Made by a program: the position numbers and the translations under genes. The notes below the pieces were generated by a model. That model saw only the letters and a program-made list of their open reading frames with translations, was not told the DNA's origin and ran no database searches. From Myxococcota bacterium (lineage in GTDB: Bacteria > Myxococcota_A > SURF-8): a stretch of DNA of 64,000 nt. Positions 38,948 to 56,122 of this stretch are shown piece after piece. The number at the start of each line of letters is the position of its first letter. Position 1 is the stretch's first letter. Location: contig OZ223209.1 in assembly GCA_965140415.1 (NCBI GenBank), positions 416,001 to 480,000 of the forward strand, in the 5' to 3' direction.

Positions 38948-39631
38948 ATGCGCCCCTATGTCCAATCTATCTTGTTGCTATTATTGTCTTTTTCGCTTTC
39001 GGTGCTCGCGATTTCCTGTGCGCATCATGAGCCGCCGCATCGACCTTCGCCGTATGTGATGGAGGGAAAAGAGGGTGTCTTTTTAAATACCTTCACCTTG
39101 CAGCAGGGGGATTTTCCGATTCTGGGAGGACCGGAGCAGCTGCATGACGCACCCGAATACGAGCGTTTGCCCGACCGCAAAACCGTCGTCCGAATCGCCA
39201 AGCGCTTCAAAGAACACGGCTATTTTCTGAGAAAGGATTATCCCTTTAATTTCGGTAAGATCCACGTCAAGCTGGACGGCTACGACCCCAAGCATTACGT
39301 CGGCTTCATCTTTGTTTCGAAAGACGATTACGAAGAACCCAAGCAGCCGCCCGATGCATTGGAATCGCGGCAGAGTTATTTTTACACCGAAAAAGATCCG
39401 TCCCGCATTTCCGTCCCGGAACTGCTGATGCTCGAACAATTGAATGGTCAGGAACGGGCTTACATCGCGTTGATCAATGCGCATCAGTTCACCTGGCCCG
39501 TTGGAGAAGCCGACCAACAGGAAGTGATGGAAAAACGCCTGCAAGCGCGGGTGGATCTGTACCTTTCCTGGGTGGATGCGCGCCTGGCCAAACGTGCCGA
39601 ACAGGAAGCTGCGAAAAAAGAGGAACCCTGA
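38948..39631 (+). CDS. Hypothetical lipoprotein
   Basis: Signal ending LAISC; stop overlaps next start. Confidence 0.7.
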   Translation: MRPYVQSILLLLLSFSLSVLAISCAHHEPPHRPSPYVMEGKEGVFLNTFTLQQGDFPILGGPEQLHDAPEYERLPDRKTVVRIAKRFKEHGYFLRKDYPFNFGKIHVKLDGYDPKHYVGFIFVSKDDYEEPKQPPDALESRQSYFYTEKDPSRISVPELLMLEQLNGQERAYIALINAHQFTWPVGEADQQEVMEKRLQARVDLYLSWVDARLAKRAEQEAAKKEEP

Positions 39632-42474
39632 TGTCTGCCCAAGAGCAGCGAAAGAAACTGTTGCAGGTCTTAGCGGGGCGCTTTAAGGGACGCATTCACG
39701 CCGATAGCCTGGGCCGCAGGCTGTTTTCCACCGATGCGTCGATTTACATGGTCGAACCGCTTTTAGCCGCCGTCCCGCGCGACGAAGAAGACCTCGTCAC
39801 CGCGTTTCGTGCCTGCCAAGAGTTGGGCATCGGCCTGCATCCGCGTGGCGGGGCGACAGGCTTGGCGGGTGAATCGCTGGGACCGGGCTTGGTGCTGGAC
39901 TGTCACCCGGCTTTTCGTCGTATCGACCGCATCGACCCGGATCATCGCCGGGTGCGTGTGGGTTGCGGAGTGACGCTGTCCGAATTGAATCGGGCTGTGG
40001 CATTGCATGGCTTGAAGTTCGGCCCGGACCCGTCCTCGGGTACGCGCGCCACCATCGGCGGCATGATCGGTACCAATGCCACCGGTACGCATTCGCTGGA
40101 TTACGGCTACACCGGCGATCACCTGATCCAGGCGCGAGTTCTGACCTCGGCTGGCGAGATCGTGACCTTGCAGCCGGGAGATTTGGAATCATTACCGGGT
40201 GGCTGGAAGGAAGCGGCCCGGATCTGCCGCGAACGGCAGGAGATCATTGAAAACGGATATCCGCAACAGCATCGCAATCGCTGCGGCTACAATCTGCGTG
40301 TCTGGCAGGATGAGCAGGTCAATCCGCTGCGCCTGTTGGCGGGAGCGGAAGGCACCCTGGGACTGCTGCTGGACGCCACCCTGGATCTGTCGCCGGTTTA
40401 CGGCCATACCGGCCTGGCGCTGTTCTGTTTCGACAGCGTGCGCGATGCCTGCGAAGCGGTCAAGCCGTTGATGCGCCACCGGCCTTCGGGCTTGGAACTG
40501 ATCGACTATCACATTCTGGCAATGGGAAGGCGCTTCGATCCGATCATCGATGAACTTCTACCCGAACACACCCAGGCGGTGTTATTGGGTGAATGGAGCG
40601 GGGAAAACGAAGACGACGTGCGCGCCCGCATGGCCGCACCGCTTCGCGAGATGCGCGCATCGGACTCTGCCGCCAGCGACGTGCGCGAGGCGCATAACGC
40701 AAAAGACGCCGCCCGCCTGTGGCTGATCCGGCGCGAGGCGGAAGCCCTGATCATGAATCGTCCCGGTCGCACTCATGCCATCAGCTTCATCGAAGACGCC
40801 GCCCTGCCTCACGAGCGCTTGATTGAACTGTTCGACATTACCGAACGCGTGCTGGACGAACACGGCCTGGAATGGGCGACCTTCGGTCACGCCGGACCGG
40901 GCGAATTGCACACGAAAGTCTATATCGATCTGCATGAACCCGCAGATTATGCCCGACTCGTTCAGGCCGCAGATACGTTTTACAGCGCCGTAATCGCCGC
41001 AGGCGGTTCGATTTCGGGCGAGCATGGCGACGGCCTGGCGCGTTCCCCCTTTATTCAACGGCAGTATCCCGAATTGTTCGAAACCATGGGTCAGGTCAAG
41101 CAGGCCATCGATCCGCACAACACATTCAATCCGGGACGAAAAACCGTTTCCTTCAAGGAGCACCCGGCGCTCTCGCACACGCGCTTGTCCGGTCGCTCTG
41201 CCTGGGCGGCCACAAGACCCGAACTGCGTTTCGATGAAGGCGAATTCGAGAAAAGTTCGGAAGCCTGTCACGGTTGCGGCGCTTGCCGCAATGTCGGGCC
41301 GGAGCTTTCGATGTGCCCCCTGTTTCGCGTGACGCACGACGAGTTGGCCAGTCCGCGAGCCAAGGGAAACGTAGCGCGGCTGACATTGTTCGGACCGGAA
41401 ACCGCCTCGGCGCGGATGAGTAAAACGGCCAAAGCGGTTGCCGAGTATTGCTTCAACTGCAAACTCTGTCGAGTGCAATGCCCGAGTCACGTAGACATTC
41501 CCAAGCTGATACTGGAATTAAAGGCCGAACACGCGCGCGAACACGGATTGAGCTTGGGTCAACGCCTGCTGGCTGCGTCCGATTCGTTCATGCAGGTTGC
41601 GGGTTACCTTCCGGGGCTCGATCATGCCCTGCAACACTCCACGCTGCTTCGTGAGGTTACAGAACGCCTTACGGGGCTGGATCGAAGCGCACCCATGCCG
41701 CACTTGGAACGTGGCAGTTTCTATCAGAAAGCGACCGCGCTGCGTCAGCCGCAAAGCAAACGCCGCCTGTTGTACTTCGCCGACTCGATGGTGCTCTACA
41801 GCGATCATCAACTGGGCCTGGATTTCATCCGGCTGGCAAACGCCTTCGGCTGGGAGGTGATTCCCTATACCTTCGGAGGCAGCGGCCTGCCTGCCCTGGA
41901 TGTCGGCGACCTCCCGCGCGTGCGTTCAATCGTGCAGCAGCACCTTGCCAATCTGGCTCCTTATGTCGCGCGATCATTGCCTATTGTCTGTTCGGAACCG
42001 AGCGCGGCTCTCATGATCAAAGAGGAATGGCCGCTCGTCACGCAGAATCCGTTGGCGAAACAGGTATCCGAGCTGGTGCGGGAGGCCACGGATTTTCTGG
42101 CCGAGCAGATCGACGAATTACCCACACCGCTGCCTCTAAAAGAGCGCTCCTTGCGTCTGGCGCATCACGCTCCCTGTCATTTGCAGGCGCTGGGCTTGAA
42201 CCGTCCAGTAAAACGCCTGATCGAAAACATTCCGAAAGCGGAATTGATTCCGGTGGATCAGGGCTGTTGTGGGATTGCCGGAACCTATGGAATCTTGAAG
42301 GAAAACCGGGCGCGGTCGTTACAGATCGGTGCGGAACTGTTTACGGAATTGGCTACTGGCAACTACGACCGGGTGTTGTGCGAATGCTCCACCTGCCGGA
42401 TGCAGATTCAGTCCGCCGTTGCAAATGCCATCGTGCAGCATCCGTTGCAGTTTCTGGCGCAGTCCTTGACTTGA
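39631..42474 (+). CDS. FAD-linked oxidase with 4Fe-4S and CCG domains (2-hydroxyacid dehydrogenase-like)
   Basis: PRGGATGLAG, ATIGGMIG, GAEGTLG, SGEHGDG, CHGCGAC, CFNCKLCRVQCP, CCGIAG. Confidence 0.92.
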   Translation: MSAQEQRKKLLQVLAGRFKGRIHADSLGRRLFSTDASIYMVEPLLAAVPRDEEDLVTAFRACQELGIGLHPRGGATGLAGESLGPGLVLDCHPAFRRIDRIDPDHRRVRVGCGVTLSELNRAVALHGLKFGPDPSSGTRATIGGMIGTNATGTHSLDYGYTGDHLIQARVLTSAGEIVTLQPGDLESLPGGWKEAARICRERQEIIENGYPQQHRNRCGYNLRVWQDEQVNPLRLLAGAEGTLGLLLDATLDLSPVYGHTGLALFCFDSVRDACEAVKPLMRHRPSGLELIDYHILAMGRRFDPIIDELLPEHTQAVLLGEWSGENEDDVRARMAAPLREMRASDSAASDVREAHNAKDAARLWLIRREAEALIMNRPGRTHAISFIEDAALPHERLIELFDITERVLDEHGLEWATFGHAGPGELHTKVYIDLHEPADYARLVQAADTFYSAVIAAGGSISGEHGDGLARSPFIQRQYPELFETMGQVKQAIDPHNTFNPGRKTVSFKEHPALSHTRLSGRSAWAATRPELRFDEGEFEKSSEACHGCGACRNVGPELSMCPLFRVTHDELASPRAKGNVARLTLFGPETASARMSKTAKAVAEYCFNCKLCRVQCPSHVDIPKLILELKAEHAREHGLSLGQRLLAASDSFMQVAGYLPGLDHALQHSTLLREVTERLTGLDRSAPMPHLERGSFYQKATALRQPQSKRRLLYFADSMVLYSDHQLGLDFIRLANAFGWEVIPYTFGGSGLPALDVGDLPRVRSIVQQHLANLAPYVARSLPIVCSEPSAALMIKEEWPLVTQNPLAKQVSELVREATDFLAEQIDELPTPLPLKERSLRLAHHAPCHLQALGLNRPVKRLIENIPKAELIPVDQGCCGIAGTYGILKENRARSLQIGAELFTELATGNYDRVLCECSTCRMQIQSAVANAIVQHPLQFLAQSLT

Positions 42475-42499
42475 TTTCTCGCTTCGATATCGCACATTT

Positions 42500-42612
42500 C
42501 AAGAAATTGCAAACCCGTCTGATTTCAGGGTGGCGCGGGCCAAGCCATAGGCTTGCCCGTGTTCGAAATCTACATGGGCAAGCTCCGTTTCTCTTCGCTT
42601 CGCCCATGCCAC
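42500..42612 (+). repeat. REPIN-like element copy A (113 bp)
   Basis: 14 mismatches in 113 bp against the reverse complement of 53718-53830 (hand alignment); two inverted hairpins. Confidence 0.88.
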
Positions 42613-42688
42613 TCTCCTCGACAAATCACAAAATCGCTAAATAGAACGAGGTATAATAATTTCCTCTTTGTTTCGATGTTTTCTTTCT

Positions 42689-42718
42689 TTGACAGATCCT
42701 GATACTCAGCAGTACACT
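42689..42718 (+). promoter_or_regulatory. sigma70 promoter for cytochrome c3
   Basis: TTGACA-18bp-TACACT. Confidence 0.6.
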
Positions 42719-42774
42719 TATAATCCTATCGGATTAGTTAGGTATGGTTTGACTTCGTGCATGGGAGAAAAAGA

Positions 42775-43143
42775 ATGCGGCGCAACCTGTTGTCCATCCT
42801 GGTGATTTTATTGGTACTGACGGCTTTTGTTTCCGTTGCCGTGGCGGTTGCCGATGTGCTGAGTATTCCTGCAAAAAAGGGCACGGTAACATTCAACCAT
42901 GCCGCGCATGAAATTCGCGCGGGGAAAAACTGCCAGACCTGTCATCATGAAATAAAAATCGATAAAAGCGGAAAGGCGGAAAAAGTCGAGAAAGGCTGCC
43001 GGGACTGTCACAAGGCCAGCGCCGTAGAAGGCAACCGCTTTTCCCAGAAGGAAGCCTTCCATCAAACCTGTAAAGGTTGTCACAAGAAAAACAAGAAGGG
43101 TCCGTTAAAATGTTTCGGCTGCCACGCCAAGCCGAAAAAATAG
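42775..43143 (+). CDS. Tetrahaem class III cytochrome c (cytochrome c3 family)
   Basis: Signal peptide, VTFNHAAH, CQTCHH, CRDCH, AFH..CKGCH, CFGCH. Confidence 0.93.
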   Translation: MRRNLLSILVILLVLTAFVSVAVAVADVLSIPAKKGTVTFNHAAHEIRAGKNCQTCHHEIKIDKSGKAEKVEKGCRDCHKASAVEGNRFSQKEAFHQTCKGCHKKNKKGPLKCFGCHAKPKK

Positions 43144-43949
43144 CACGGACAGAATTCCTTAAATTCTGGAAACACGCCGCATTATTGCGCCTCGATCGCG
43201 TGTTGATCGAGCGTCACAGCCCTTCCGGCTGGTTTCAGGCGCTGTGGTCGGAATGCCTGCCTTTGCTCGTTTCGAAAAATGATTGGCGGCGTTTTACGAT
43301 GCAGGCCTATGGTCGCATGCCGATCTTCTCCGAGGACAATCATAACCGTCAGCTATTCGACTGGGAAGCCAAAGCCATCGACACGCAGTTTCCCATTGCA
43401 CCCGCCAATGTATTGGTTGCAGCGGCAGGCGGAGGACGGGAAATGCTGGCGCTGATCGAACGCGGTTTCAAGGTGGCGGGCTTCGATCCTCACCCGGATT
43501 TCATTCAATCTGCAAAAAAACGTCTGTCGCCCGAAAACGTCTGTGCGCTTGAAGTTGCAGGCTACGAAGAACTTCTAAACGGCATCGAAAGCATCGATGC
43601 CGCCGCCCCCTACGATGCGATTCTGTTGGGTTGGGGCAGCCTGGCGCATGTGGGAGAAGATGAGACGAGACGCCGCCTGTTTCAACGGCTGCACGAACTA
43701 TGTCCGAAGGGACCGTTACTGCTTAGCTGGCTTAGCCCTCCGCAACTCGACCGCACGCGCAGAAAAACGAGACGTCGGCTGCAACGAAACAAGATTCTAC
43801 CGGAGCGCATCCGCGATCACTACGACACGCACCTGGGTTTCATTCATCTTTTCGATGAAGGGGAGATCCGACAACTGGCGCAGGAAAACGGCTATCGAAT
43901 CGTGCTGTACGATGAATCTTTAGGACAATGTCATGCGCTACTGAGATAA
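43110..43949 (+). CDS. Class I SAM-dependent methyltransferase-like protein
   Basis: VLVAAAGGGRE...VAGFD, YDAILLGW; start uncertain. Confidence 0.72.
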   Translation: MFRLPRQAEKIARTEFLKFWKHAALLRLDRVLIERHSPSGWFQALWSECLPLLVSKNDWRRFTMQAYGRMPIFSEDNHNRQLFDWEAKAIDTQFPIAPANVLVAAAGGGREMLALIERGFKVAGFDPHPDFIQSAKKRLSPENVCALEVAGYEELLNGIESIDAAAPYDAILLGWGSLAHVGEDETRRRLFQRLHELCPKGPLLLSWLSPPQLDRTRRKTRRRLQRNKILPERIRDHYDTHLGFIHLFDEGEIRQLAQENGYRIVLYDESLGQCHALLR

Positions 43950-43984
43950 AAAAACCGGCCTCGCGTTTTGCACGAAGCCGGTTT
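43948..43984 (-). terminator. Intrinsic terminator (probably for minus-strand 44019 gene)
   Basis: AAACCGGC...GCCGGTTT stem with A7 tract on + strand. Confidence 0.6.
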
Positions 43985-44018
43985 CCAATGCGTTACCTAA
44001 AACAAGGTTTTCCGTTCG

Positions 44019-46352
44019 CTATTGCGCGGTTCGTACACAACGGGCAATGGAGGTGTTCGTTTTGCGGTTGTAAACGATCGGTCCGTTGGTGTCGACCTCG
44101 GCGAGCATAGCCCAAACGGCACTATCCGGTTTGCTGGTGCCTGTAAAATAGCCTGCCGTCATACTGGGAATATCGCTGTATGGCGGAGCGTCCTTGTCGA
44201 AATTGACGATAGTCAACAGCTCCATGAAGGTCGGCAGCCGCCAATCGTTGTATCCGTTCCATTCAAGAGCTTCACAGGTCGACAGAGCGCTTTTCCAGTT
44301 TTTGTAGCCTTCGGTGGACGTTTTCCACATCAGGTTCGCCAAGTGGTCAACCACCACGGTTTCCGTGCTTCCCTCTGTCGAAAAACGCGTGGCGGGCAGT
44401 GTCACTTCTTCGTCGACGCGGACGCAGCGAACCGCGTTTTCCTGTGTTGCGGCTTCACGGTTGGCGTATACGTCGGCGAACTGAACGTAGAAGTATTGGT
44501 TTGCCGGTGCGTGATAGGAAGAAGTCCAGTAGTTTGCACTCGACGTATCCGCAAAGTAGGATCGGTTCACAGCCGGAGCGCCGTCACCCATATCGAACAG
44601 CGAGAGCAGTTCCGCGATACCCGGCAGATGCCAGTCCGAATAGCCGCCGTAATCCAGGTTTTCGCAATAGGCCTCCGCTTCATCTTCCGTACAAAGCGCG
44701 GCATTACCGGCTTCGCAGCCTTGCGGCGCGGTAGAACTGACTCGTTGCCACATCAAGCCGGTCACATCATCTTTTACCACTTCCCCTTCCGTTGCGGCGG
44801 AAGGACAGGGATCGAGCAGGCTTCCGGTGTTGTAACAGGAATAGGAGCGTCCGGTGGTATAATACGTTCCGGCCTGGCCGTAAAAATCTTCGCCACTTGC
44901 CGGGCAGGGATTCAGTTCGCCACTATCGCCGAAGCAGGTGTACTGCGCAGTTGGAATGTTCCAGCAGAAGGCATGGCGGCAGTAATCTTCCGGGTAAACG
45001 GTGCCACTCTCTTCTTCGACTTCCGCCTCCGCTTCGGGTTCCGCTTCCGGTTCAAGTTCCTCTTCCGGTTCGATTTCAGCTTCCAGTTCTTCTTCCATAT
45101 CCGCTTTGACTTCTGCATCCAAGTCGCCATCGGATTCCATTTCCCACACATCCGCTTCCGTCAGATCGAGATCGCCATCTACTGCGTGTTCTTCTTCCGC
45201 AACTTCAAGCTCGACATCTCCATCTGTAACCATGTCTTCTTCAACATCCATGTCAGGGTCGTCATCGCCATCCGGCGTACCTTCCGTGCCGTCCCCGTCA
45301 ACGTCCCCATCGATGATCGTGTCGCCGTCTGCATCACCATCTAAATCGTCCTTATCCGCAGGCGGTATCACATGGTCTTCATCGCCAAGCGCATCACCGT
45401 CTGCCGCGTTTCCTTCACCGATGGTCACCACCCAGTTGCGATACAGACCGACGCCTTTTTCTCCTTGTAACGCCCAGAGAAATACCACCTGGTCGCCGAC
45501 TTCGAGATTGCTTCCGAGTGTGCATTCAATGGGGATCGAACGCACCGATTCCCCAGCCGCCGAGCTTCCGCCGCGTTTTCTTGCTGTAGTCAGATCCACC
45601 GGAATCTTTTTGTAACCGGGATAATTGGGAGTGGACACAATGACGAACTCGACGGTGCCATCGAAATCCGTTTGTAGATCGAGCGAAAAAGAAGCACCCG
45701 GCATCAGTTTATCCGGTGCATCGATCAAGGAAATCTGGGGAACCTCCTGACCGGACAGGCCCTGCGGGCGTCCGCTGTCGAAGCTCTCTTCGCCTTGGGC
45801 GCTGATCAGTTCCAGACTTTCCGAAACCGCGTAGTTCGAATGCACATCATCGGAGATCGTCACAGTCTGCGCAACGTAAGCACCAAGTACGCCGTCGGCG
45901 GTTTTAAGCGCGAAATACAGGGTAAAGGTTTGTCCTGCCAGTTCCATTTCGTTTCGAAGAATACCGGACAGATCGACGAGACCCGTAATCGGAGACGCAC
46001 CGACCTTGATATAGCCGTCAGCCTTCACGCCGTCTTTCTCGGCATACATGATGGTTTCTTCCACAAGCTCCGGCTCTCCAAAATCGGTTTGCAGGGTAAT
46101 GGCAAATGGTGCTCCCAGTTGCAGGCTGCTTGCTTGGATGGAACTGATCTGCGGAGCATCGGTGCTGTCGCTTCCTTCGGGAATATCTCCTTCGATGGTT
46201 TCACCGTTGTCGAAATCAAGTGCGTCGGTCAATCGATCGGCCAACTCGGATGCAACTTCACCCGCATCGGTATCCGAAGAACAGGCGGGAAGCAGTGCGA
46301 GAAGAAGAACGGTCAGCAACAGGAACTGGATCGTGCGGCAATGGTTGTTCAT
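44019..46352 (-). CDS. Lipoprotein with duplicated N-terminal domain, DGD/Glu-rich linker and two DUF1566 (Lcl-like) domains
   Basis: LLPAC lipobox; VKDDVTGLMWQ...GYSDWHLP...VRCVR and VVDHLANLMWK...GYNDWRLPT...ARCVR. Confidence 0.85.
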   Translation of the reverse strand: MNNHCRTIQFLLLTVLLLALLPACSSDTDAGEVASELADRLTDALDFDNGETIEGDIPEGSDSTDAPQISSIQASSLQLGAPFAITLQTDFGEPELVEETIMYAEKDGVKADGYIKVGASPITGLVDLSGILRNEMELAGQTFTLYFALKTADGVLGAYVAQTVTISDDVHSNYAVSESLELISAQGEESFDSGRPQGLSGQEVPQISLIDAPDKLMPGASFSLDLQTDFDGTVEFVIVSTPNYPGYKKIPVDLTTARKRGGSSAAGESVRSIPIECTLGSNLEVGDQVVFLWALQGEKGVGLYRNWVVTIGEGNAADGDALGDEDHVIPPADKDDLDGDADGDTIIDGDVDGDGTEGTPDGDDDPDMDVEEDMVTDGDVELEVAEEEHAVDGDLDLTEADVWEMESDGDLDAEVKADMEEELEAEIEPEEELEPEAEPEAEAEVEEESGTVYPEDYCRHAFCWNIPTAQYTCFGDSGELNPCPASGEDFYGQAGTYYTTGRSYSCYNTGSLLDPCPSAATEGEVVKDDVTGLMWQRVSSTAPQGCEAGNAALCTEDEAEAYCENLDYGGYSDWHLPGIAELLSLFDMGDGAPAVNRSYFADTSSANYWTSSYHAPANQYFYVQFADVYANREAATQENAVRCVRVDEEVTLPATRFSTEGSTETVVVDHLANLMWKTSTEGYKNWKSALSTCEALEWNGYNDWRLPTFMELLTIVNFDKDAPPYSDIPSMTAGYFTGTSKPDSAVWAMLAEVDTNGPIVYNRKTNTSIARCVRTAQ

Positions 46353-46553
46353 TTGAATTTACCTCCAACGGTTACAGGAGTGTAACGAATCTAAACTAGA
46401 TCGCTTTTTCTATCTCATTTTAGATGTTACGTCAACATAATGACTCTATTTCTTAACACATTCTAAAGATAGTTATTCGCAGGGGAAGCAAGAAAAATTA
46501 TACAACTATCCCATCTCCCCACACCATCCTATTGCCTGATTCGAAGACACAAC

Positions 46554-49500
46554 TTAGTAGCAGTAGTTGCTCAGCTCGGTATAGCTTTCAGAGTAGCACT
46601 GGGCGCAGAGGATCTGCCCTGTCGTGCCGTTCTTTGCACCGGCGCTGACTTGGGACGAACCGAAATAAATGTGCGTGGAGGGCCCACCCGCGCTAGCCGT
46701 AATGGCGCTCTGGTTCCCGTACAACACCGAATGATCAATGTACAAGTTGTAGGCAACGCCAACAATAGAACTCTGATTGGATACAAGCATAGACTGATCG
46801 CCAGAACTGTCGTTGCTCAATTTACTTCCGCGAATGCTTCCCTTGGCCGTTTCAATCATGCGGAAAGTGTGAGCGGTGTATGAGGAACACTCGTATAGTT
46901 CAATTTCACTGTCCGTAACGGTCGTGCTGATACCGTTATTGCTCAACACGCCCACGGCGGTGGCGTTCATATCACCGCGCACCTTGATTCGACTATTGCG
47001 TATGGATACTTCGGCGATATAGGCGTAAATGCCGTATTGAGCAGTGGTCGTATCCGATCCAAGCACGGAAATGGTACTGTCCACCATTTCCAGAATCATA
47101 TTCTCGGAAGTTCCGCCATTGCCTTCGATGGTGATGCCGTAGTGAGAGGCATCATCGCCGGTGACCGTAATGGAAACATGATCCAGCATCAGGCTTCCGG
47201 CCATCGAAGCAACCGTGTGAGTAATTCCACGGCAATTGCCTGCATTTCCGGTTTCGATGGAAACATACAGTAAGGAGGGTGAAACGCCCTCGCTGTAAAA
47301 TGCGGTTGCGAACGTGCCTCCACCGCGATTCTTGATGCTTAAGTGGCGCAGTTGCGAGTTATTGTTTCCTACAATGGTTCCGGCATTGACACCGCTATGG
47401 CTGTCGGACGTAATGAAGGTCATGCCCTGACCCGAACCTTCGATGTCTACGTATTGCTGCATGTACAGGCTGGCGTTCTGTAGATCGAATTCACCGGGTC
47501 CGATTTTAACCAGATATGGCGAAGTTGCGGATGCTCCGGTAATACCATTGACAGTATTGAGCAGCCGTTCTCCGTCGGCGGCGCTGTCACCGGTGGAATA
47601 AACATGAATCGTTTGGGAATACTCAGCCAGCATTCGGAATTTCGCACCGCCATCGTTACTGACTTCGAAGCGATCCGCTCCCGAGCTGTAACGCAGGATG
47701 CCGTCCGGGCTTATACCCTGCTTGGCGACGATCCAGACATCGGTGTCGTTGGTGTCGTCACCTACGGTCAGATCCTGCCCGACCACCATGCTACCGTCCG
47801 TTTGAAGTGTGCTGCTCATCGGTGAATAAAGGTTCGTACCACCGATAGTCATTTCAAAACCGCTGCCGCTTACATTCGGGAAACTGACGCTACCGGCATT
47901 TACGGTAAAGAGATCGCTGGAAGAGATACCCAAACTGGCATCGCCTTGTACTTCCAAGGTGGAGAGGGTCGCTCCTGCCGGAGTCGTTGCGCCGATTTCC
48001 GTATTGTCGATCGAGCCGCCACTAATGGTCAAGTTGTCCGCCACTTCGTTATCCGCCCAGGGATAAGTCGTGTTAACCCAGTTTCCGGTCAAGGTCTCCG
48101 CCGCCGTGATATCCGGTCCGACGCTATCGATACCGCATTCCCAAGCAGTCGAACTGATGTTCCACTTGAGCACGTAGCCATCTTCGCAGCTTGAGAGCAG
48201 ACCGAAATCCGTGCCGCTCATTTCCAGACCGCGATTGGTTAAAACATCATACGTAGTATCATCGTCCACGCCGTCGGAGAAACCGCTGGGAACGCTTTGC
48301 AATTCGCTCCAACTATGACCATGATCGCTGCGGGAAGCCTGGGTACTGGTACCGTCGCTATCGAAATTCACGGCCAAGCTCAGATCGCCGCTCGTGCCGC
48401 CGCCGGTCAAGCCGTCTCCGGCCGTCACGCCGGTCACATCGCCGCTGGTGGGCGCATAGGTTTCACAGATCCAGCTCGATCCGGAAAACTTCAGAATGGA
48501 GTTGGCCGAACAGCTTTTGATCAAACCGATCATGTTGCTGCCATCGATTTCGATACCGTTCGTTACATCGCCGCTGTAGATGGTATCATTGTCCACGCCA
48601 TCAGCAAAGCCGCTGGGGATGGTCTGAATTTCACTCCAGTCGTGCAGGTGGTCACTGCGAGACACCTGTGTGCTGCTGCCATTGGTATCGAAATTCACAG
48701 CCAGGTTCAAATCGCCGCTCGTGCCGCCTCCGGTCAAGCCGTTTCCGGCAGTCACGCCGGTCACGTCGCCACTACCGACCTCGTCGATACGGCATTCCCA
48801 AAACGATCCCGACTGATCCCATTTCAATATGTAGCCGTCATCGCAGGTGGAGAGCAGACCAAACTGGGTGCCATTCATTTCCAAGCCGCGATTGGTCTGC
48901 ACGCTATAGGTGGTATCGTTGTCCACGCCATCGGAGAAGCCGCTGGGAATACTTTGCAATTCACTCCAATCGTGTTGATGGTCGCTGCGGGCAACCTGGC
49001 TGCTGGAACCGTCGCTGTCGAAGTCTACCGCCAATGAAACACTCCCCGCATCACCACCGCCGGTCAGACCCGTACTTGCGATAACGTCAGTGATGTCCCC
49101 GCTCGATGTGGTGTAGGGTTCACAGATCCAACTTGTTCCGGTGTATTTTAGCACGGATTCGGGCGAGCAGCTTTTGATCAGACTGATCGCGTTACTGCCG
49201 TCGATTTCGATACCGTTCGTCGCATCGCCGCTGTAGGTGGTGTCGTCGTCCACGCCGTCGACAAAACCGCTGGGGATGCTTTGCAATTCGCTCCAGTCGT
49301 GTAGATGGTCGCTGCGGGAAACCTGCGTACTGCTGCCATCACCATCGAAATTCACCGCCAGACTCAAATCACCACTCGTACCGCCACCGGTCAAGCCGTC
49401 GCCCGCCGTTACGCCGGTAACATCGCCAGTGCCGCTTTCATCGGGGGCACAGATCCAAGCCGGGATTTCCGAATCCCATTTCAGCACTTCGCCTCTTCCA

Positions 49501-50930
49501 CAGGTCGAAAGTAAGCCGAAGTCATTACCGGTTATTTCCAGACCGCGATTAGTCTGAACGCCATAGGTGGTATCGTTGTCCAGATCTGTTGCGCAATACC
49601 AGGTACTGCCGCCGAGATCCCATTTTAAGACCTGACCGTCTGTGCAGCCAGGCAGCAGACCAACCTGGGTACCATCGAAATACAACCCGCCGCCTGTGGT
49701 GGCGCTGTAAAGTGTGTCGGCATCGGTATCGCAGTTCCAGAGCTGACTGGTATCGTTCCAGCGCAGCACGTTGCCTTCGTTGCAGTTGCCGACCAGTCCG
49801 ATTTCCGTACCGCTGACTTCGATGCCTCGTCCGCTCATGGCGCTGTAGGTCGTGCCGGTGGTATCGATCAGGACGCAGTCCCACTGCTGTTCGAGCGCAT
49901 TCCAGGCCAAGACCTGATCCGCGCCGCAGTCGGTGCGTAAGCCGATTTCATTGGCGCTGATAACCATGCCGCCGCCGGTGGCGGGATTGTATTGCGTATC
50001 GGCATCGGTGGAACATTCCCAGTTTTGGTTGGTGTTGTTCCAGCGTAGAATCTCGCCATCGGCGCAGGTGGCGATCAAACCGATTTCCGTACCGCTCACT
50101 TCAATACCGCGATCGATCATCGCCGTGTATACGGTGCTCGATCCGCCGATGGTCGTACATTCCCAACCCGATAAGGCGGCATTCCAATGCAATACCTGCG
50201 TATCGCTGCATTGGGTCGATAGGCTGATGGTGCCATTGGCGATTTCCAAGCCGCTGCCCGCAACGGCGCTGTACTGAGTGTCGTCGTCGACGCCGTCGGC
50301 AAAGCCTTCCGGGATCTGCTGGATTTCGCTCCAGAGATGGCTGTGAGTCGATTCGGAAAATCCTTCCAGGCGCGTATCGATTTCGGTTTCGGTGTAATAC
50401 AGATCGTCGTGATCGTGGGTGACGGGAGGAAATTCCTCTGGTTTATCCGTGATTTCATCCCAGGCGTGATCATGTCCGGCAAAACTGAAGGCGTCCGCTT
50501 CCATGCCTTGAATACTCTGTGCATCGCCAGCCGAAAGGGCGTAAGGCACCGACGTAACCCGGAGTTTTCCCGGCAGCAGCAGATCTTCATCGACCAGATA
50601 AACCTGGAAAGCCAAGGCGCGACCTGCATTTTGCGTCAGAATCGGCGCTAATGAACCAGGAGTCTGATTGCCACTGACGCCCAATTCCACGCTGAGCCAG
50701 CCATCGAGCGTTTCTACATCGGCAAACGTTTCCGTCCATAGTACAGTATCGGTATCGCCGGTTTCAAGCAGGCGAACTTCCACCCCACCCTGATAGGAGA
50801 ACCCCGCATCGCCGTCGAATATGCGCGCGGAAAGTTGCACCGAGGTCGGTGGAGCCGCCTGGACCATAGGCAGCCACAACACGATCAGGGCCAGAATGAT
50901 GAAAAGTCGAATTGTTGAAGTCAGGGACAT
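46554..50930 (-). CDS. Large secreted repeat fibre/adhesin-like protein (1458 aa)
   Basis: Signal peptide; LWTET...SVELG...SVPYAL N-domain; HDHDDLYYTETEID; 10 C-x(3-4)-VLxW-x(n)-WxC units; 4 GDVTGVTAGDGLTGGG units; C-terminal beta-helix-like region (YLVKIGPGEF). Confidence 0.8.
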   Translation of the reverse strand: MSLTSTIRLFIILALIVLWLPMVQAAPPTSVQLSARIFDGDAGFSYQGGVEVRLLETGDTDTVLWTETFADVETLDGWLSVELGVSGNQTPGSLAPILTQNAGRALAFQVYLVDEDLLLPGKLRVTSVPYALSAGDAQSIQGMEADAFSFAGHDHAWDEITDKPEEFPPVTHDHDDLYYTETEIDTRLEGFSESTHSHLWSEIQQIPEGFADGVDDDTQYSAVAGSGLEIANGTISLSTQCSDTQVLHWNAALSGWECTTIGGSSTVYTAMIDRGIEVSGTEIGLIATCADGEILRWNNTNQNWECSTDADTQYNPATGGGMVISANEIGLRTDCGADQVLAWNALEQQWDCVLIDTTGTTYSAMSGRGIEVSGTEIGLVGNCNEGNVLRWNDTSQLWNCDTDADTLYSATTGGGLYFDGTQVGLLPGCTDGQVLKWDLGGSTWYCATDLDNDTTYGVQTNRGLEITGNDFGLLSTCGRGEVLKWDSEIPAWICAPDESGTGDVTGVTAGDGLTGGGTSGDLSLAVNFDGDGSSTQVSRSDHLHDWSELQSIPSGFVDGVDDDTTYSGDATNGIEIDGSNAISLIKSCSPESVLKYTGTSWICEPYTTSSGDITDVIASTGLTGGGDAGSVSLAVDFDSDGSSSQVARSDHQHDWSELQSIPSGFSDGVDNDTTYSVQTNRGLEMNGTQFGLLSTCDDGYILKWDQSGSFWECRIDEVGSGDVTGVTAGNGLTGGGTSGDLNLAVNFDTNGSSTQVSRSDHLHDWSEIQTIPSGFADGVDNDTIYSGDVTNGIEIDGSNMIGLIKSCSANSILKFSGSSWICETYAPTSGDVTGVTAGDGLTGGGTSGDLSLAVNFDSDGTSTQASRSDHGHSWSELQSVPSGFSDGVDDDTTYDVLTNRGLEMSGTDFGLLSSCEDGYVLKWNISSTAWECGIDSVGPDITAAETLTGNWVNTTYPWADNEVADNLTISGGSIDNTEIGATTPAGATLSTLEVQGDASLGISSSDLFTVNAGSVSFPNVSGSGFEMTIGGTNLYSPMSSTLQTDGSMVVGQDLTVGDDTNDTDVWIVAKQGISPDGILRYSSGADRFEVSNDGGAKFRMLAEYSQTIHVYSTGDSAADGERLLNTVNGITGASATSPYLVKIGPGEFDLQNASLYMQQYVDIEGSGQGMTFITSDSHSGVNAGTIVGNNNSQLRHLSIKNRGGGTFATAFYSEGVSPSLLYVSIETGNAGNCRGITHTVASMAGSLMLDHVSITVTGDDASHYGITIEGNGGTSENMILEMVDSTISVLGSDTTTAQYGIYAYIAEVSIRNSRIKVRGDMNATAVGVLSNNGISTTVTDSEIELYECSSYTAHTFRMIETAKGSIRGSKLSNDSSGDQSMLVSNQSSIVGVAYNLYIDHSVLYGNQSAITASAGGPSTHIYFGSSQVSAGAKNGTTGQILCAQCYSESYTELSNYCY
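48150..49581 (-). repeat. 657-bp period tandem duplication within fibre gene
   Basis: Equivalent DxDTTYxVxTNRGLE codons near 49552, 48895 and 48238. Confidence 0.85.
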
Positions 50931-50944
50931 GAGCTTCCTCCTGC

Positions 50945-52096
50945 TTATCGACCGATTAGACCGTCAGCCGTAGGGCCAAGGGTCATGCGTGTTTGTAGGT
51001 TCGCTCCGCTTACGAGCGCGGTAGGATACAGAAAAGCGGGTTGCACCCGAAAATCCAGCGGTGTGGTGTCCGTATCCGGATCGGAATCGACATCGAGATC
51101 CTGATCGCCATCGCTTTCCGGCGCGACTTCCTCATCGAGATCGGAGTCGCCCCCTTGATCCCCATCGGGAAGAACCACCGTTCCACCGATTACAATGCTC
51201 CAGCCTCGATACAGACCGACCGTTCCATCTTCCGTTTTCAGGGCAAACATGAAGGTGACGACATCTCCGGCAGAGAGTTTTTCGGCATCCAGTGTGCCTT
51301 CAACGCGCATCACACGGCCTTTGTCGGTATCGATCAGTGAGCCTTCGACATCGAAGTAGCTGGTGCTGTTGGGCAAGGTCATGATGGCGCTGATAATCGG
51401 AGTGGAACCCTGATAATCGGTGAATAGATCGATGGTAAACGTATTTCCGGGCAGTAACAGGTCCGGGCCCTCGATTTTCTTGATCTGGGCGGCGGTGTCG
51501 CTGCCGCTGCCGCGCGGAGCCTCTTCGTTGATCAAGGTGGCATTGTCGCCAAAAGCGACGGTATCGACTGGCTCGCTCAATTCCTGCGGAGGCTCATCGG
51601 GAATGGCGAAGTTGGTAGGCCGATACAAACCCGTGCGGCCATCGCTGGTCTGTAGTGCGAAATTAAGGGTGAACGACATGCCTTGCAATGTCGGATCCCC
51701 CTTCAGGGTTCCGAACAGGGTCACCAGATTTTCGAACAATGCTGCCGGAACCGCGATATAGCCGCTGGCTCCAACGACCTGCACGATGACTTTATCTACC
51801 TTTTCCGGTTGTTCGAAGGCGCTGGAAATGCCGACGGAAAACGAGGCTCCCAGCCGGAAGCTGTCCGGACCGTTGATTACGACGATCTGAGGCGCACCGG
51901 AACCGGCTTCACCTTTGGGAGGCTGACTGTCTTCATATTCGCCGTCTTCGAATTCGAGTGCGTCGGTCAATCGGTCGGCCAGCTCGCCGGCCAACTCTCC
52001 GGCGTCGGTGCCGGAATGGCAGGAGGATAGCCACAACGCGGGAAGCAGCAGAAAAAGAACCGGCAACATCGGCGCGAGTGAGCGAGATGTAGTCAT
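50945..52096 (-). CDS. Lipoprotein, paralogue of the N-terminal half of 44019-46352
   Basis: LSSC lipobox; ELADRLTDALxF shared with 44019 gene; internal duplicated PQI...FALxTxDG..GLY domain. Confidence 0.85.
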   Translation of the reverse strand: MTTSRSLAPMLPVLFLLLPALWLSSCHSGTDAGELAGELADRLTDALEFEDGEYEDSQPPKGEAGSGAPQIVVINGPDSFRLGASFSVGISSAFEQPEKVDKVIVQVVGASGYIAVPAALFENLVTLFGTLKGDPTLQGMSFTLNFALQTSDGRTGLYRPTNFAIPDEPPQELSEPVDTVAFGDNATLINEEAPRGSGSDTAAQIKKIEGPDLLLPGNTFTIDLFTDYQGSTPIISAIMTLPNSTSYFDVEGSLIDTDKGRVMRVEGTLDAEKLSAGDVVTFMFALKTEDGTVGLYRGWSIVIGGTVVLPDGDQGGDSDLDEEVAPESDGDQDLDVDSDPDTDTTPLDFRVQPAFLYPTALVSGANLQTRMTLGPTADGLIGR

Positions 52097-52354
52097 ATCA
52101 TCTTCCGTTCGATTGCGAGGGAAACGCGTCCATACCTGAACGAGTTCCCATCGATCATCGTTTCATTTCACGTTACAGAGGAACTACCCACCTATTAAAA
52201 TAGCATGAAACCCCAATCTCTTCAACTTTAGATCGAAAAAGAGGGTCGATTATTCAAACCTATTTATCACAATAATATCAAATACATACAATCATCTTGC
52301 ACAATGTCGGCAGAAAGCGGCTAGTGCTTTTGTAAGCATCGGGTCGCTAAAGTC

Positions 52355-52384
52355 TTGACAGGGCAAATCGTTCTTGCCTATCCT
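52355..52384 (+). promoter_or_regulatory. sigma70 promoter
   Basis: TTGACA-18bp-TATCCT; predicted start site ~52390. Confidence 0.6.
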
Positions 52385-52388
52385 ATAG

Positions 52389-52561
52389 ACAACTGGAGAT
52401 ATTCGCCACCAGTGAACCGGTGGGTCCGCATATGCATATGCGGGAGGCTTCTGAAAAACAGTGGAGGGGCGGTGAGTCGGTCGGGTTGCTCGCAAATCAT
52501 GCCGCGAGTAATTCGACTGAGTGTGTTGATCGACTGGCGGATGTGAGTGGTAATCAGTTGT
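52389..52561 (+). ncRNA. Candidate structured RNA / 5' leader (unassigned)
   Basis: Closing stems ACAACTG/CAGTTGT and ATATTCGCCA/TGGCGGATGT; internal hairpins 52426-52443 and 52480-52517 with G-U pairs. Confidence 0.5.
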
Positions 52562-52578
52562 TGAAAGGATCTCGTACG

Positions 52579-52821
52579 ATGAAATGGAACGGAATGCCGC
52601 CACGCAACCCTGCGCGCTATAATACGGTTGACAGCGGGGTAAAGTGCCCGACCTGCGGAGAAGGGTCTCTTTACCCGCTTTTCAGTTGTTTGGAATCTCA
52701 TTTTGTCTGTTCGAATTGCGACGAGCGTTTCAGCCTGGAATCCTTGGTGTTCAAGCTTTCCGACAGCGACTTCGATTCTTTGGCAGATCTTGTCGGACAT
52801 CGCTATTGCGACCGAATCTGA
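52579..52821 (+). CDS. Small dual-CxxC zinc-ribbon-like protein (80 aa)
   Basis: RBS AAGGA; CPTC...FSC...CSNC...CDRI. Confidence 0.75.
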   Translation: MKWNGMPPRNPARYNTVDSGVKCPTCGEGSLYPLFSCLESHFVCSNCDERFSLESLVFKLSDSDFDSLADLVGHRYCDRI

Positions 52822-52942
52822 ACGAAACGAGATGGATTGACTCGATACCACGCGACGGTTGAGCCACGGTCGTCGCAGCCCGGACAGGGCAATACTGTAC
52901 ATCGAACGGAAACAACAAGCTTGGTTGGGAAAGGAGTGTCCA

Positions 52943-53620
52943 ATGCTTTCCACGAAAGGATTGTGGGCGTGTCTCGTATTGGCGTCGCTGGTGGTGGTAG
53001 GCTGTGACTCCTCGGACTGTGGCGACTGTATCGGGGATGGTGATAACGCGTTGTGCGAAGAAGGCGACAAGGGTTGCGACGATAGCTGGCGGACTGTCTG
53101 CATCGAGGGCGCCTTTGAACGCATCGAAGATTGCGATATCGTTAATGAAGCGTGCCAGGACGGCTTTTGCGTACCGTATGCTACCGATGGCGATGGCATT
53201 GCCGATGGAGACACGACCGATGGCGACAGCACCGTTGATGGCGATGTGGCGGACGGTGACAAGGTGGATGGCGATACTGTGGTCGACGGCGATAATCAGC
53301 CCGATGGCGACATGGAAAACGATGGCGATGTTGTGGTCGATGGTGATGTAACCGATGGTGATGTAACCGACGGCGACATGGATATGGTCGATGGAGATAG
53401 CCCAGTGGACGGCGATGCTCCCGATGGCGATATCATCGACGGAGATATCATCGATGGCGATATGGAAGCCGATGGCGATACACCAATTGATGGCGATGTC
53501 ATTGACGGAGACATGGACGGTGATGCAATCGACGGTGACAGTCCGGTAGATGGCGATGTGGACGGCGATTGCGATCTGGAAGATTGTGAAGCGGAAGGGG
53601 AAGTCGTAGCGGCGGAATAG
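52943..53620 (+). CDS. Lipoprotein: short Cys-rich domain + 24 DGD repeats
   Basis: RBS AAGGAG, lipobox VVGC, 24 DGD motifs counted. Confidence 0.85.
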   Translation: MLSTKGLWACLVLASLVVVGCDSSDCGDCIGDGDNALCEEGDKGCDDSWRTVCIEGAFERIEDCDIVNEACQDGFCVPYATDGDGIADGDTTDGDSTVDGDVADGDKVDGDTVVDGDNQPDGDMENDGDVVVDGDVTDGDVTDGDMDMVDGDSPVDGDAPDGDIIDGDIIDGDMEADGDTPIDGDVIDGDMDGDAIDGDSPVDGDVDGDCDLEDCEAEGEVVAAE

Positions 53621-53654
53621 GATTGCCCGCTAAATCGCTTCTCTTTTAGTAAGT

Positions 53655-53698
53655 ATGAACGAGCCGAGTCGGTTAACCGCTCGGCTCGCTTCATTTTT
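53655..53698 (+). terminator. Intrinsic terminator
   Basis: ATGAACGAGCCGAG...CTCGGCTCGCTTCAT followed by T tract. Confidence 0.75.
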
Positions 53699-53717
53699 GT
53701 CTGTTCAGATTCGACGG

Positions 53718-53830
53718 GTGGCATTGGCCAAGCGAAGAGAAACGGAGCTTGCCCATGTGGCTCCTTAACACGGGCAAGCCTGCGGCTTAGCCCGCGCCAC
53801 CCTAAAATCAGACAGGTTTGCAACTTCTTG
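53718..53830 (-). repeat. REPIN-like element copy B
   Basis: Inverted copy of 42500-42612. Confidence 0.88.
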
Positions 53831-53946
53831 TGATGCACCCTGTTGGATCTGGAATACCTTATTTTACCACAATTCCTCTTGCCTTTTACTCCTATTTATG
53901 AGACACCACCAATCCTTGGTTCTCCCTTTTTGGTTAGGAAATAAGT

Positions 53947-55800
53947 ATGAGTCCCGCATCGAACACAAACGGAAGTCAAAAGCAGATACGCAATGTCGCC
54001 ATCATTGCTCACGTCGATCACGGTAAAACCACCCTGGTTGACCGTATGCTGGAGCAGTGCGGCACCTTGAAACGCAGCGAAGTCGGCATCGACCGCGCCA
54101 TGGATTCCAACAGCCTGGAACGCGAGCGCGGCATCACGATCTTGTCCAAATGCACGGCGATGGAATTTCGCGATCTGCACGTCAACGTAGTCGATACGCC
54201 CGGTCATGCGGATTTCGGCGGTGAAGTCGAACGCGTGATGCGCATGGTGGATTCGGTGCTGCTGTTGGTGGATGCCTTTGAAGGTCCGATGCCGCAAACG
54301 CGCTTCGTCACCCAGAAAGCGCTGGCGCGTGGATTGAAACCGATTCTGGTCATCAACAAAATCGACCGTGAAGGCGCAGACCCGGAAGGAGCCGTCAACG
54401 AAGTTTTCGATCTCTTCGTTTCGTTGGACGCCAACGACGAGCAACTGGATTTTCCCATCATCTACGCCTCGGCCAAGCAGGGATACGCCATCAATGAGTT
54501 GGATGACGAACCTAATGATTTGACTCCACTTTTCGAGCTGATCGCCAAAGAAGTACCGCCGCCGGAAGTCGAAGAGGGTGAAAGTCCGGCCATGCAGGTC
54601 TCCACTTTCGATCACGACGATTACCTGGGCGCAATGGCGACCGGGCGTGTGGTCAGTGGATGCTTTAAGCGTGGTGAAATGGTGCTGCTGGTTCATCGCG
54701 ACGGTTCCCACGAAGAATTCCGTATTACCCGTATTCTGGGTTTCCACGGTCTGCATCGCTTCGATATGGATGAAGCAATCGCGGGCAACATCGTTACCAT
54801 CACCGGCATGAGCGAACTGAATGTCGGTGAAACCATTACAAGTATCGAGAATCCCAGGATATTGCCGCTGCTGAAAATCGATGCACCTACCGTGTCGATG
54901 GCTTTTCGCGCCAACACCGGACCCTTTTCCGGTAAGGAAGGCAAGTATGTCACAAGCCAGAATCTGAAAGCGCGGCTGGAAAAGGAAATCCGCTCCAATG
55001 TGTCTCTGCGCGTGGAACCGACGGATCAGGCGGACACCTTTATCGTCAGTGGTCGCGGCGAGTTGCACCTGGCGGTGCTGATCGAAACGATGCGCCGCGA
55101 AGGGTACGAATTCATGGTGGCGCGTCCCGAAGTGGTGCTGCAATACGATGAAAACGGCCATAAGCAGGAGCCGTACGAGTCGCTGGTGGCGGATGTAGAC
55201 GCCGAGCATTCCGGTGTTGTGATCGATGCGCTTAACCGACGTGGCGGACGCATGCTGGGCATGCGCGAAATGCGTTCCGGGCGCACCCGGCTGGATTACG
55301 TCGTCCCCACGCGCGGCCTGATCGGCTACCGCTCGCAATTCATGACCGACACGCGCGGCATGGGCATTTTGAGCCACGTCTTTCTGGAATACGGCGAATT
55401 TCTGGGACCGATGCGCGGACGTCAGAACGGCGCTCTGGTCGTACAGGATACCTGCACGACGGTCACCTTCGGTCTGTGGAAATTGCAGGATCGCGGCGTC
55501 TTTTTCGTGACTGCCGGAGAAACGGTGTATGAAGGTCAGGTGATCGGCGAGCGCAATCGCAGCGGCGATATCGTCATCAATCCCGGGAAAGAGAAGAAAC
55601 TCACGAACATGCGCGCCTCCGCCTCCGATGAAAAAAACTGGCTCAAGCCGCATCGCGTCTTGTCGATTGAGGAAGCCATCGAATTCATCAACGATGACGA
55701 GTACGTGGAGTTCACGCCCGAATCCATCCGCATCCGCAAGCGCTATTTGGATTTCAACGACCGCAAGCGCCTGGAGCGCCGCGAAGCGAAAGAACAATAA
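53947..55800 (+). CDS. typA: Translational GTPase TypA/BipA
   Basis: [48 protein letters not shown]. Confidence 0.98.
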
Positions 55801-55861
55801 GTTTTAGAAATCGTTAGCAAGCAGTCTGCTGCCGGATGGCGTCCAATTTCCAACACCCGGT

Positions 55862-55890
55862 TTGACTCCCGTGGGTCTTTCTCCTATGAT
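55862..55890 (+). promoter_or_regulatory. sigma70 promoter
   Basis: TTGACT-17bp-TATGAT. Confidence 0.65.
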
Positions 55891-55969
55891 AGGCTCCGTT
55901 ACATTCGGTTCTTAGTTGATTTTAGCTGAGTTAGAGAAATTACTAGTCATCATTAGCGATATCTTCTTT

Positions 55970-56096
55970 TAGCGGCGAGGCGTAAGCCCGCCGTTTTCAA
56001 GATGTTTTTCGGTGGGCGGCATGGGCGAAGCGAAGGGAAACGGAGCTTGCCCATGTGCTTTTGAACACGGGCAGGCAGGCTCACGCCTCGCCGCTA
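55970..56096. repeat. Composite REP element copy C
   Basis: 19-bp terminal inverted repeats TAGCGGCGAGGCGTRAGCC enclosing a ~60-bp core shared with copies A and B. Confidence 0.82.
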
Positions 56097-56122
56097 CGAA
56101 TATCGAATCGCCTGTACTCGAA

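Follow-up and report, generated by a model that had tools for sequence, protein, structure and literature searches.

Introduction

The mosaic adhesive trimer (MAT) fibres of Bdellovibrio bacteriovorus were defined by Caulton et al. (2024; PMC10769870). They combine a Sec signal and a conserved N-terminal domain (N-domain) with a long shaft of repeats and a C-terminal tip that varies, and ions were seen in the Bd2133 fibre (PMC10769870). The word 'lipoprotein' occurs nowhere in that paper, and no anchor for MAT fibres is named in the accessible parts of two reviews from 2025 (PMC12428579) and 2026 (PMC13689555). Here, we describe a locus of a Myxococcota bacterium in which the gene of a MAT-like fibre (gene F) directly follows the gene of a lipoprotein (gene A) that may serve as its anchor; a second lipoprotein gene (gene C) lies behind the fibre gene. 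The locus occupies positions 44019-52096 of a 64,000-nucleotide (nt) stretch (contig OZ223209.1, positions 416,001 to 480,000), which is referred to as the window and supplies all coordinates given without a contig name. A full-text literature search, which covered few subscription journals, found no account of a lipoprotein partner or of MAT-type fibres in this phylum.

F shares with MAT fibres the Sec signal, the conserved N-domain, the long repeat shaft and the variable tip. A Pfam scan found no S74 domain in F, which in this resembles the NS74 subgroup of PMC10769870, the one without the S74 protease domain; two database relatives carry PF13884. The differences are that the host of F belongs to another phylum and shows no sign of predation, that the F shaft is built of Cys-pair and HxH repeats, and that a cognate lipoprotein is encoded upstream, whereas PMC10769870 names no anchoring partner.

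Phage tail fibres and tailspikes resemble F in three respects: the F shaft has PHROG tail-protein matches (e.g. phrog_10588 at 1.7e-14), the beta-helix tip is like that of tailspike depolymerases, and both contain HxH motifs. In phage fibres, HxH motifs bind metals on the three-fold axis. Unlike these fibres, F is chromosomal with no phage genes nearby, carries a Sec export signal and has a lipoprotein in place of a baseplate. Trimeric autotransporter adhesins are, like F, long modular repeat fibres of the surface, of presumed trimeric state, that display a binding head. They are anchored by their own C-terminal beta-barrel, whereas F has no barrel and its anchor would be a separate lipoprotein that binds the N-terminus. 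The Legionella collagen-like protein Lcl and other Lcl_C/DUF1566 adhesins share the Lcl_C domain with C, which ends in two of them, and collagen repeats also occur in sibling fibre proteins of this genome. In C, however, the Lcl_C domains are carried on a lipoprotein stalk of immunoglobulin (Ig)-like modules and not on a collagen-like shaft.

Results

A lipoprotein gene precedes many MAT-like fibre genes

Gene A (50945-52096) encodes a lipoprotein of 383 amino acids (aa) and ends 14 nt before gene F (46554-50930), which encodes a secreted repeat fibre of 1458 aa. The spacer from the A stop codon to the F ATG (50931-50944) contains AGGAGG. Gene C (44019-46352) encodes a 777-aa lipoprotein. These three open reading frames (ORFs), all on the minus strand as are their features below, lie where a preliminary description of this DNA had placed them.

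The arrangement of A and F was also found in three related genomes of two families (G004, G006 and G009; the present genome is G000). In each, a fibre gene with the N-domain starts 14-18 nt behind the gene of a lipoprotein that bears the N-terminal module of A; the surroundings differ, and the fibres of the three pairs measure about 1715, 1146 and 4112 aa, the second being accompanied by further fibre genes. The proposal that A and F form an anchor and its fibre was borne out to the extent that their adjacency was kept in all three.

A profile search of the present genome revealed eight N-domain genes at six loci. At four loci besides that of A and F (at 1.07, 2.04, 3.32 and 5.23 Mb), the fibre gene is preceded by a lipoprotein of 150-232 aa consisting only of a lipobox, an acidic linker rich in DGD and a tail of about 45 aa; these minimal partner genes end 5-64 nt before the fibre gene on the same strand. 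Five of the six loci thus have a partner lipoprotein and one has no intact partner. Across the whole order, this genome included, the first N-domain genes of 21 clusters (cluster heads) were compared: 14 have a firm and one a doubtful partner, two are preceded by a different protein of about 490 aa, and four have none. This tally leaves out six further places, at contig ends or outside the survey. In the rest of the phylum, a partner was recognized by inspection at 12 of 22 loci, and the other 10 have no such tail. Outside the order, a lipobox was present in all 10 partners whose N-terminus was read, and in some of the partners inserted Cys-rich repeats separate the linker from the tail.

The Ig-like module of A was found in only four order partners, three of which accompany the three longest fibres. 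The remaining partners (10-11 of 14-15) have the lipobox, linker and tail only, which argues that the module is not what joins lipoprotein to fibre. As A and F are kept together in the three related genomes and C is not, the predicted unit is a pair of genes, A and F, rather than three. The principal new result of this comparison is a putative conserved partner of MAT-like fibres, a lipoprotein with a C-terminal tail.

Several N-domain loci depart from the common layout. L090 (G002:C6) and L093 (G006:C1) are sets of short N-domain proteins encoded in tandem, with FGE-sulfatase tips in G002, that stand after the conserved protein of about 490 aa, which may be an alternative partner. At L053 (G097:C4), the protein encoded before the N-domain gene has a hydrophobic stretch and then basic residues at its end, resembling a C-terminal sorting or anchor signal and not the tail. 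The sole partnerless N-domain locus of the present genome (L107; with its upstream region, G000:C1:3727483-3728863) is overlapped upstream by an ORF of 73 aa that ends in a stretch like a signal peptide plus lipobox, possibly a decayed partner gene. At L103 (G000:C1:1071693-1076107), a minimal tail lipoprotein is followed by three tandem N-domain proteins of about 400 aa, all with a collagen triple-helix repeat. A weak Xlink/C-type-lectin-like end, scoring under the Pfam cut-off, is present in two of them, and the proteins look like miniature fibres on collagen stalks.

The C-terminal tail and its predicted docking

The C-terminal tail of A (residues 346-383, 50948-51061), a candidate fibre-docking element, is about 38 aa long and is separated from the fibre gene by the 14-nt gap noted earlier. 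The tails of 19 partners in other genomes were combined in a profile, which was searched against the 60,913 six-frame ORFs of this genome. The four minimal partners took ranks 1-4 (E 1.1e-6, 3.4e-5, 7.3e-5 and 0.0056), the next match having E 0.098, and all four matches were located at the C-terminus of the ORF. The tails matched no meaningful family in NCBIfam. Short tails like that of A were seen in the G004 partner (P0011) and in the family members P0010, P0020 and P0028. In a quick tree, the tail-bearing modules of A type (A, G004/P0011, P0010, P0020 and P0028) formed one clade with the tail-less P0019, with a Shimodaira-Hasegawa-like approximate likelihood ratio test (SH-aLRT) value of 95; the G006 and G009 partners fell in another clade.

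The preliminary description had suggested predicting the fibre trimer together with the lipoprotein, and such a prediction was run for the tail of A. The complex contained three copies of F residues 26-215 and the last 60 aa of A, each with its own alignment. The score was 0.59 (runs 0.59, 0.38 and 0.69), while the best of three controls reached 0.02. The runs shared at least 86% of contacts, and the predicted local distance difference test (pLDDT) value of the partner was at least 47. In the calibration of the tool, 116 of 157 solved complexes and 2 of 215 mismatched pairs passed the mark, but only 18 of the 157, and both of the mismatches, passed it with a score of 0.60 or less; with user-supplied alignments and three copies, this job is unlike the calibration. 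The tool returned a verdict of weak support. Read at that strength, the model hints that the A tail may dock on the fibre N-domain.

A and C share a lineage-restricted lipoprotein module

A and C are paralogous: BLASTP aligned 119 identical residues of 313 (38%, E 4e-48), in agreement with the earlier statement that about 300 aa are common to both. The duplicated module reported inside the shared region was also recovered: the alignment of module 2 of A with the first module of C (26%, E 4e-5) speaks for an internal duplication. The near-identical DNA at 46216-46247 and 51954-51985 is identical at 29 of 32 positions and sits within a 94-nt stretch of 73% identity. Because this stretch encodes the conserved ELADRLTDAL helix motif, the match is attributed to protein conservation and not to a recent exchange of DNA. 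The acidic linker noted after the shared region is present in both proteins, with a D+E fraction of 0.38 in A and 0.46 in C.

In A, the signal peptide and lipobox (52019-52096), read from the sequence, place the lipobox Cys at residue 26 (52019-52021). The conserved helix with the ELADRLTDAL motif (residues 31-46, 51959-52006) was delimited from the AlphaFold2 (AF2) model (helix 7-22 in model numbering) and conserved alignment columns. It is followed by two Ig-like beta-sandwich modules (module 1, residues 71-164, 51605-51886, delimited by model strands at 47-140; module 2, residues 207-303, 51188-51478, by those at 183-279) and by the acidic DGD-type linker (residues 304-345, 51062-51187), where pLDDT is below 60. 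The corresponding helix and two-sandwich module of C covers residues 23-316 (45405-46286). The lipobox Cys is invariant in 12 of 12 paralogues of this genome and in all 70 aligned family members; its context is LSSC in A and the less usual LPAC in C. A and C are thus predicted lipoproteins, with acylation and membrane location expected from the lipobox.

The AF2 model of A, computed on a 70-sequence alignment, showed a helix and two beta-sandwiches followed by a disordered linker and tail (pLDDT 84.9, predicted template modelling (pTM) score 0.78). Foldseek and VIA-align matched the shared module only to generic Ig/FN3/PKD sandwiches. The best match, to module 2, was 7khf_A (LILRB1 D3D4; Z 8.3, root-mean-square deviation 2.8 over 100 residues), and many unrelated sandwiches had Z 7-8, also for module 1. 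The fold is therefore ordinary and indicates no function. Neither Pfam nor NCBIfam has a model that extends over the part common to A and C, so that the domain described as unrecognized is indeed without a family model; the structure comparison points to two generic Ig-like sandwiches.

The module occurs in 12 copies in this 5.98-Mb genome (tblastn and profile search), in proteins of 169-1167 aa, and always starts at the lipobox Cys. The Cys is followed by a short acidic stretch, the ELADRLTDAL-type helix, a PP..G...APQI turn and one or two modules of about 100 aa. A profile of the 12 copies matched 245 representative proteins at E<=1e-3, of which 111 at E<=1e-30, among 1.84 billion, so the similarity within the family is far beyond chance. 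Matches were found in 10 of 10 genomes of the order (3-20 each) and in 1 of 21 genomes sampled from other families of the phylum. Among the 150 listed representatives, the 66 members of 440-1273 aa were scanned for downstream domains: 15 had Lcl_C, 13 an FGE-sulfatase-like domain (one had both), 8 had beta-propellers and 6 had other domains, while no domain was found in 25. The partner domains of the module in this genome are Lcl_C, WD40, an SBBP propeller, EGF plus FGE-sulfatase, and lamin-tail. The fibre N-domain was absent from the 150 top-scoring representatives scanned (of 245), and no lipoprotein-fibre fusion was found among them. Protein searches by words with A and with F residues 1000-1458 returned the query itself only, and a search for related loci with the module of C gave one weak match, to a metagenome-assembled genome. 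Protein Atlas look-ups returned values of at most 0.81 for the shared module and unnamed clusters at 0.91-0.92 for the fibre N-domain, which serve as leads only. Ordinary in fold, the module belongs to a new lipoprotein family restricted to this lineage, and from its domain partners it is read as a putative order-specific stalk that presents binding domains on lipoproteins.

F is a remote relative of MAT fibres

F begins with a Sec-type signal peptide without lipobox (residues 1-25, 50856-50930; read from the sequence), followed by a MAT_N-like domain of about 115 aa (residues 26-140, 50511-50855). This N-domain matched NF053851 (Bdello_MAT_N) with 22.9 bits (E 5.9e-5) against a curated cut-off of 60 bits, and all homologues likewise scored below the cut-off. 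Of 20 aligned N-domain homologues, 19 matched NF053851 at E<=0.1 (best 4.9e-11), and other families were matched by at most one homologue. Profile similarity thus marks it as remotely homologous to the N-domain of Bdellovibrio MAT fibres, and not as a member by the curated rule. It was present in 74 of the 301 genomes sampled in the phylum.

Behind the N-domain lies a segment with HxH motifs (residues 152-200, 50331-50477; HDH at 153, HDH at 172 and HSH at 196). The repeat shaft (residues 215-935, 48126-50288) consists of 10 Cys-pair repeats and four composite HxH repeats of about 110 aa, and F has seven HxH motifs in all, three after the N-domain and one in each composite repeat. The C-terminal tip (residues 1100-1458, 46557-47633) was modelled by AF2 as a right-handed beta-helix (pLDDT 67, pTM 0.73, on an alignment of only six sequences). 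Foldseek likened it to alginate epimerases (AlgE4, 7e-5), to pectin methylesterases and to phage tailspikes, with low template modelling (TM) scores of 0.36-0.45. These model-based likenesses suggest that the tip most likely binds or cuts polysaccharide.

A sequence search of the PDB with F gave 0 matches, and no second full-length copy of F was found in the genome. Different tips, among them FGE-sulfatase and Xlink-like domains, are seen on sibling N-domain proteins. Collagen triple-helix repeats occur in five of the seven other N-domain proteins of this genome, which fits with trimeric fibres. Given these repeats and its seven HxH motifs, F is probably trimeric, as was assumed in the complex prediction.

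C is set apart from the gene pair

C combines the shared module with a long acidic linker and two C-terminal Lcl_C (DUF1566) lectin-like domains (44031-44780; about residues 525-645 and 657-774, the bounds of the second being approximate, from tblastn). The DUF1566 domains had been recognized earlier, and PF07603 matched C in two stretches with 153.2 bits against a cut-off of 34.9 (E 4.3e-45). Weak NCBIfam matches to the adhesins Lsa25 and FimD tip adhesin were also obtained.

The preliminary description had joined C to A and F in a three-gene apparatus. Downstream of the fibre, the G004, G006 and G009 loci have neither a C-like nor an Lcl_C gene (0 of 3). C is further separated from F by an AT-rich spacer of 201 nt (46353-46553) that contains a promoter-like, TGTATAAT-like box and GGAGG; a terminator scan of this spacer found none, and promoter and terminator counts over the locus were not above those in shuffled sequence. 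In the quick tree, C belongs to a different clade of the module family from A and groups with P0015, a protein with two Lcl_C domains. The expectation that paralogues neighbour fibre genes holds for two of the 12 copies in this genome, A and C, while the other 10 are unlinked to fibres and stand in unrelated surroundings. A three-gene apparatus is therefore not supported; C is interpreted from these comparisons as a separate lectin-like lipoprotein that would present two Lcl_C domains by itself, outside the A-F cassette.

Neighbouring features of the window

Divergent from A lies an ORF of 253 aa (52859-53620, plus strand) in which a lipobox-like signal and a short part rich in Cys are followed almost entirely by DGD-type acidic repeats. 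It contains eight copies of a 48-nt unit, and no C-terminal domain or tail is recognizable. A small class III multihaem cytochrome c gene (42757-43143, plus strand; PF02085, 5e-12) and an adjoining ORF of 947 aa (39631-42474, plus strand) are apparently unrelated to the fibre locus. An intergenic repeat of about 110 nt occurs at 42495-42612, 53718-53835 and 55992-56057. Its 118-nt copies at 42495-42612 and 53718-53835 are inverted around an 11-kb segment that contains the locus. A mobile cassette bounded by these inverted repeats was considered and rejected because the element has 72 blastn matches across the genome, which mark it as a dispersed element like repetitive extragenic palindromes (REP) or miniature inverted-repeat transposable elements (MITE). 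An Rfam search of 42300-56400 gave no match.

Discussion

Since the gene pairing is conserved and no anchor has been named for MAT fibres, we propose that the tail tethers the fibre. A and F would form a two-gene cassette of a surface fibre and its lipid anchor, with the tail docked on the fibre N-domain, a reading that we consider slightly better than even. A may thus be a lipid-anchored docking partner, an anchor for MAT-like fibres. Its acylated Cys would hold A in the membrane, the helix and two Ig-like sandwiches would act as a rigid stalk adding reach, and the acidic linker would extend that reach. The short tail would dock on the fibre N-domain, probably by adding strands to it. The tailspike-like tip would bind or cut polysaccharide.

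Several results weigh against this proposal. The tail of A was missed by the profile built from tails of other genomes (E >1.3), and earlier leave-out profiles, from a first, mixed alignment, recovered only the 2.04-Mb partner (E 0.015) and missed both A and the 1.07-Mb partner. The A tail is shorter than the general tail of about 45 aa and resembles only its first half, so that its homology is based on position and pattern. Tail calls outside this genome were made largely by eye. Lipoprotein and fibre are also not always paired, as shown by the four order heads without an upstream lipoprotein and the two with the different protein of about 490 aa, out of 21, and by the 10 of 22 loci outside the order that have no such tail. 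The complex score is weak by the rule of the tool itself, and the 60-bit cut-off of NF053851 is reached neither by F nor by any other protein of this genome. Finally, the proposal presupposes an outward orientation of A and a route for the 1458-aa, Sec-exported F over the outer membrane.

The last point bears on an alternative in which the lipoprotein encoded upstream would be a helper in assembly or export, whose tail would bind the N-domain only transiently in the periplasm, so as to hold the fibre, trimerise it or pass it to a secretion route, and would then release it. A helper would be expected to be just as tightly paired with its fibre, complex prediction is blind to the difference between transient and stable binding, and the fibre does need a route over the outer membrane. 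The minimal partners, however, have nothing but a lipid anchor, an acidic linker that is long and disordered, and a short tail, a layout that fits a tether better than a folding helper. Known fibre chaperones, moreover, work at the C-terminal tip and have their genes downstream, which also counts against a helper, and we regard it as unlikely. More doubtful is the view that A, one further lipoprotein of an expanded family, stands beside the fibre without a functional connection, its tail a remnant after domain loss. The failure of the tail profiles to recognize A would fit this view, as would the 10 of 12 family copies that are not linked to fibres in this genome. Against it, the adjacency at 14-18 nt is kept in three other genomes of two families, tails of A type are conserved within one clade, and the order of lipoprotein before fibre holds independently for the minimal partners; chance pairing is therefore given little credence.

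We hold it equally improbable that A, F and C make up a three-part adhesion or prey-recognition machine, with A as anchor, F as shaft and C as lectin-like lipoprotein. The three genes do lie on one strand, and A and C have the N-terminal module in common. Lcl_C and FGE-sulfatase-like tips, besides, occur both on lipoproteins of the family (15 and 13 of 66) and on N-domain proteins of G002, so that lipoprotein and fibre scaffolds display similar binding domains. The three related fibre loci, however, have no such gene downstream (0/3), and C has the 201-nt spacer with its promoter-like box in front, groups with P0015 and further paralogues at a distance from A, and belongs to a family whose other 10 copies here are found in unrelated surroundings.

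The two-gene cassette of A and F could be one case of a two-component system that extends over the whole phylum, an extension that we put forward tentatively, as possible but short of an even chance. Every MAT-type fibre would then be held by a dedicated lipoprotein whose C-terminal tail of about 45 aa inserts into the trimeric N-domain, and such a lipoprotein would be the 'surface element' postulated for Bdellovibrio. The order-specific helix and Ig-like module, with its acidic stretch behind the lipid-bearing Cys, would be a surface-display stalk, or possibly an export signal, reused by the lineage for a dozen binding domains. Acidic residues just after the Cys resemble the surface-export signal of Bacteroidota lipoproteins.

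The module defines a lipoprotein family that had no annotation, and it helps to annotate the 'hypothetical lipoproteins' of this lineage. The distribution of the N-domain in the phylum indicates that the MAT-like fibre type is widespread beyond Bdellovibrio. At present, MAT fibres are the best candidates to explain how a predatory bacterium recognizes prey of many kinds. Their attachment to the cell was left open in PMC10769870, and the conserved upstream lipoprotein described here may provide a testable candidate for the anchor.

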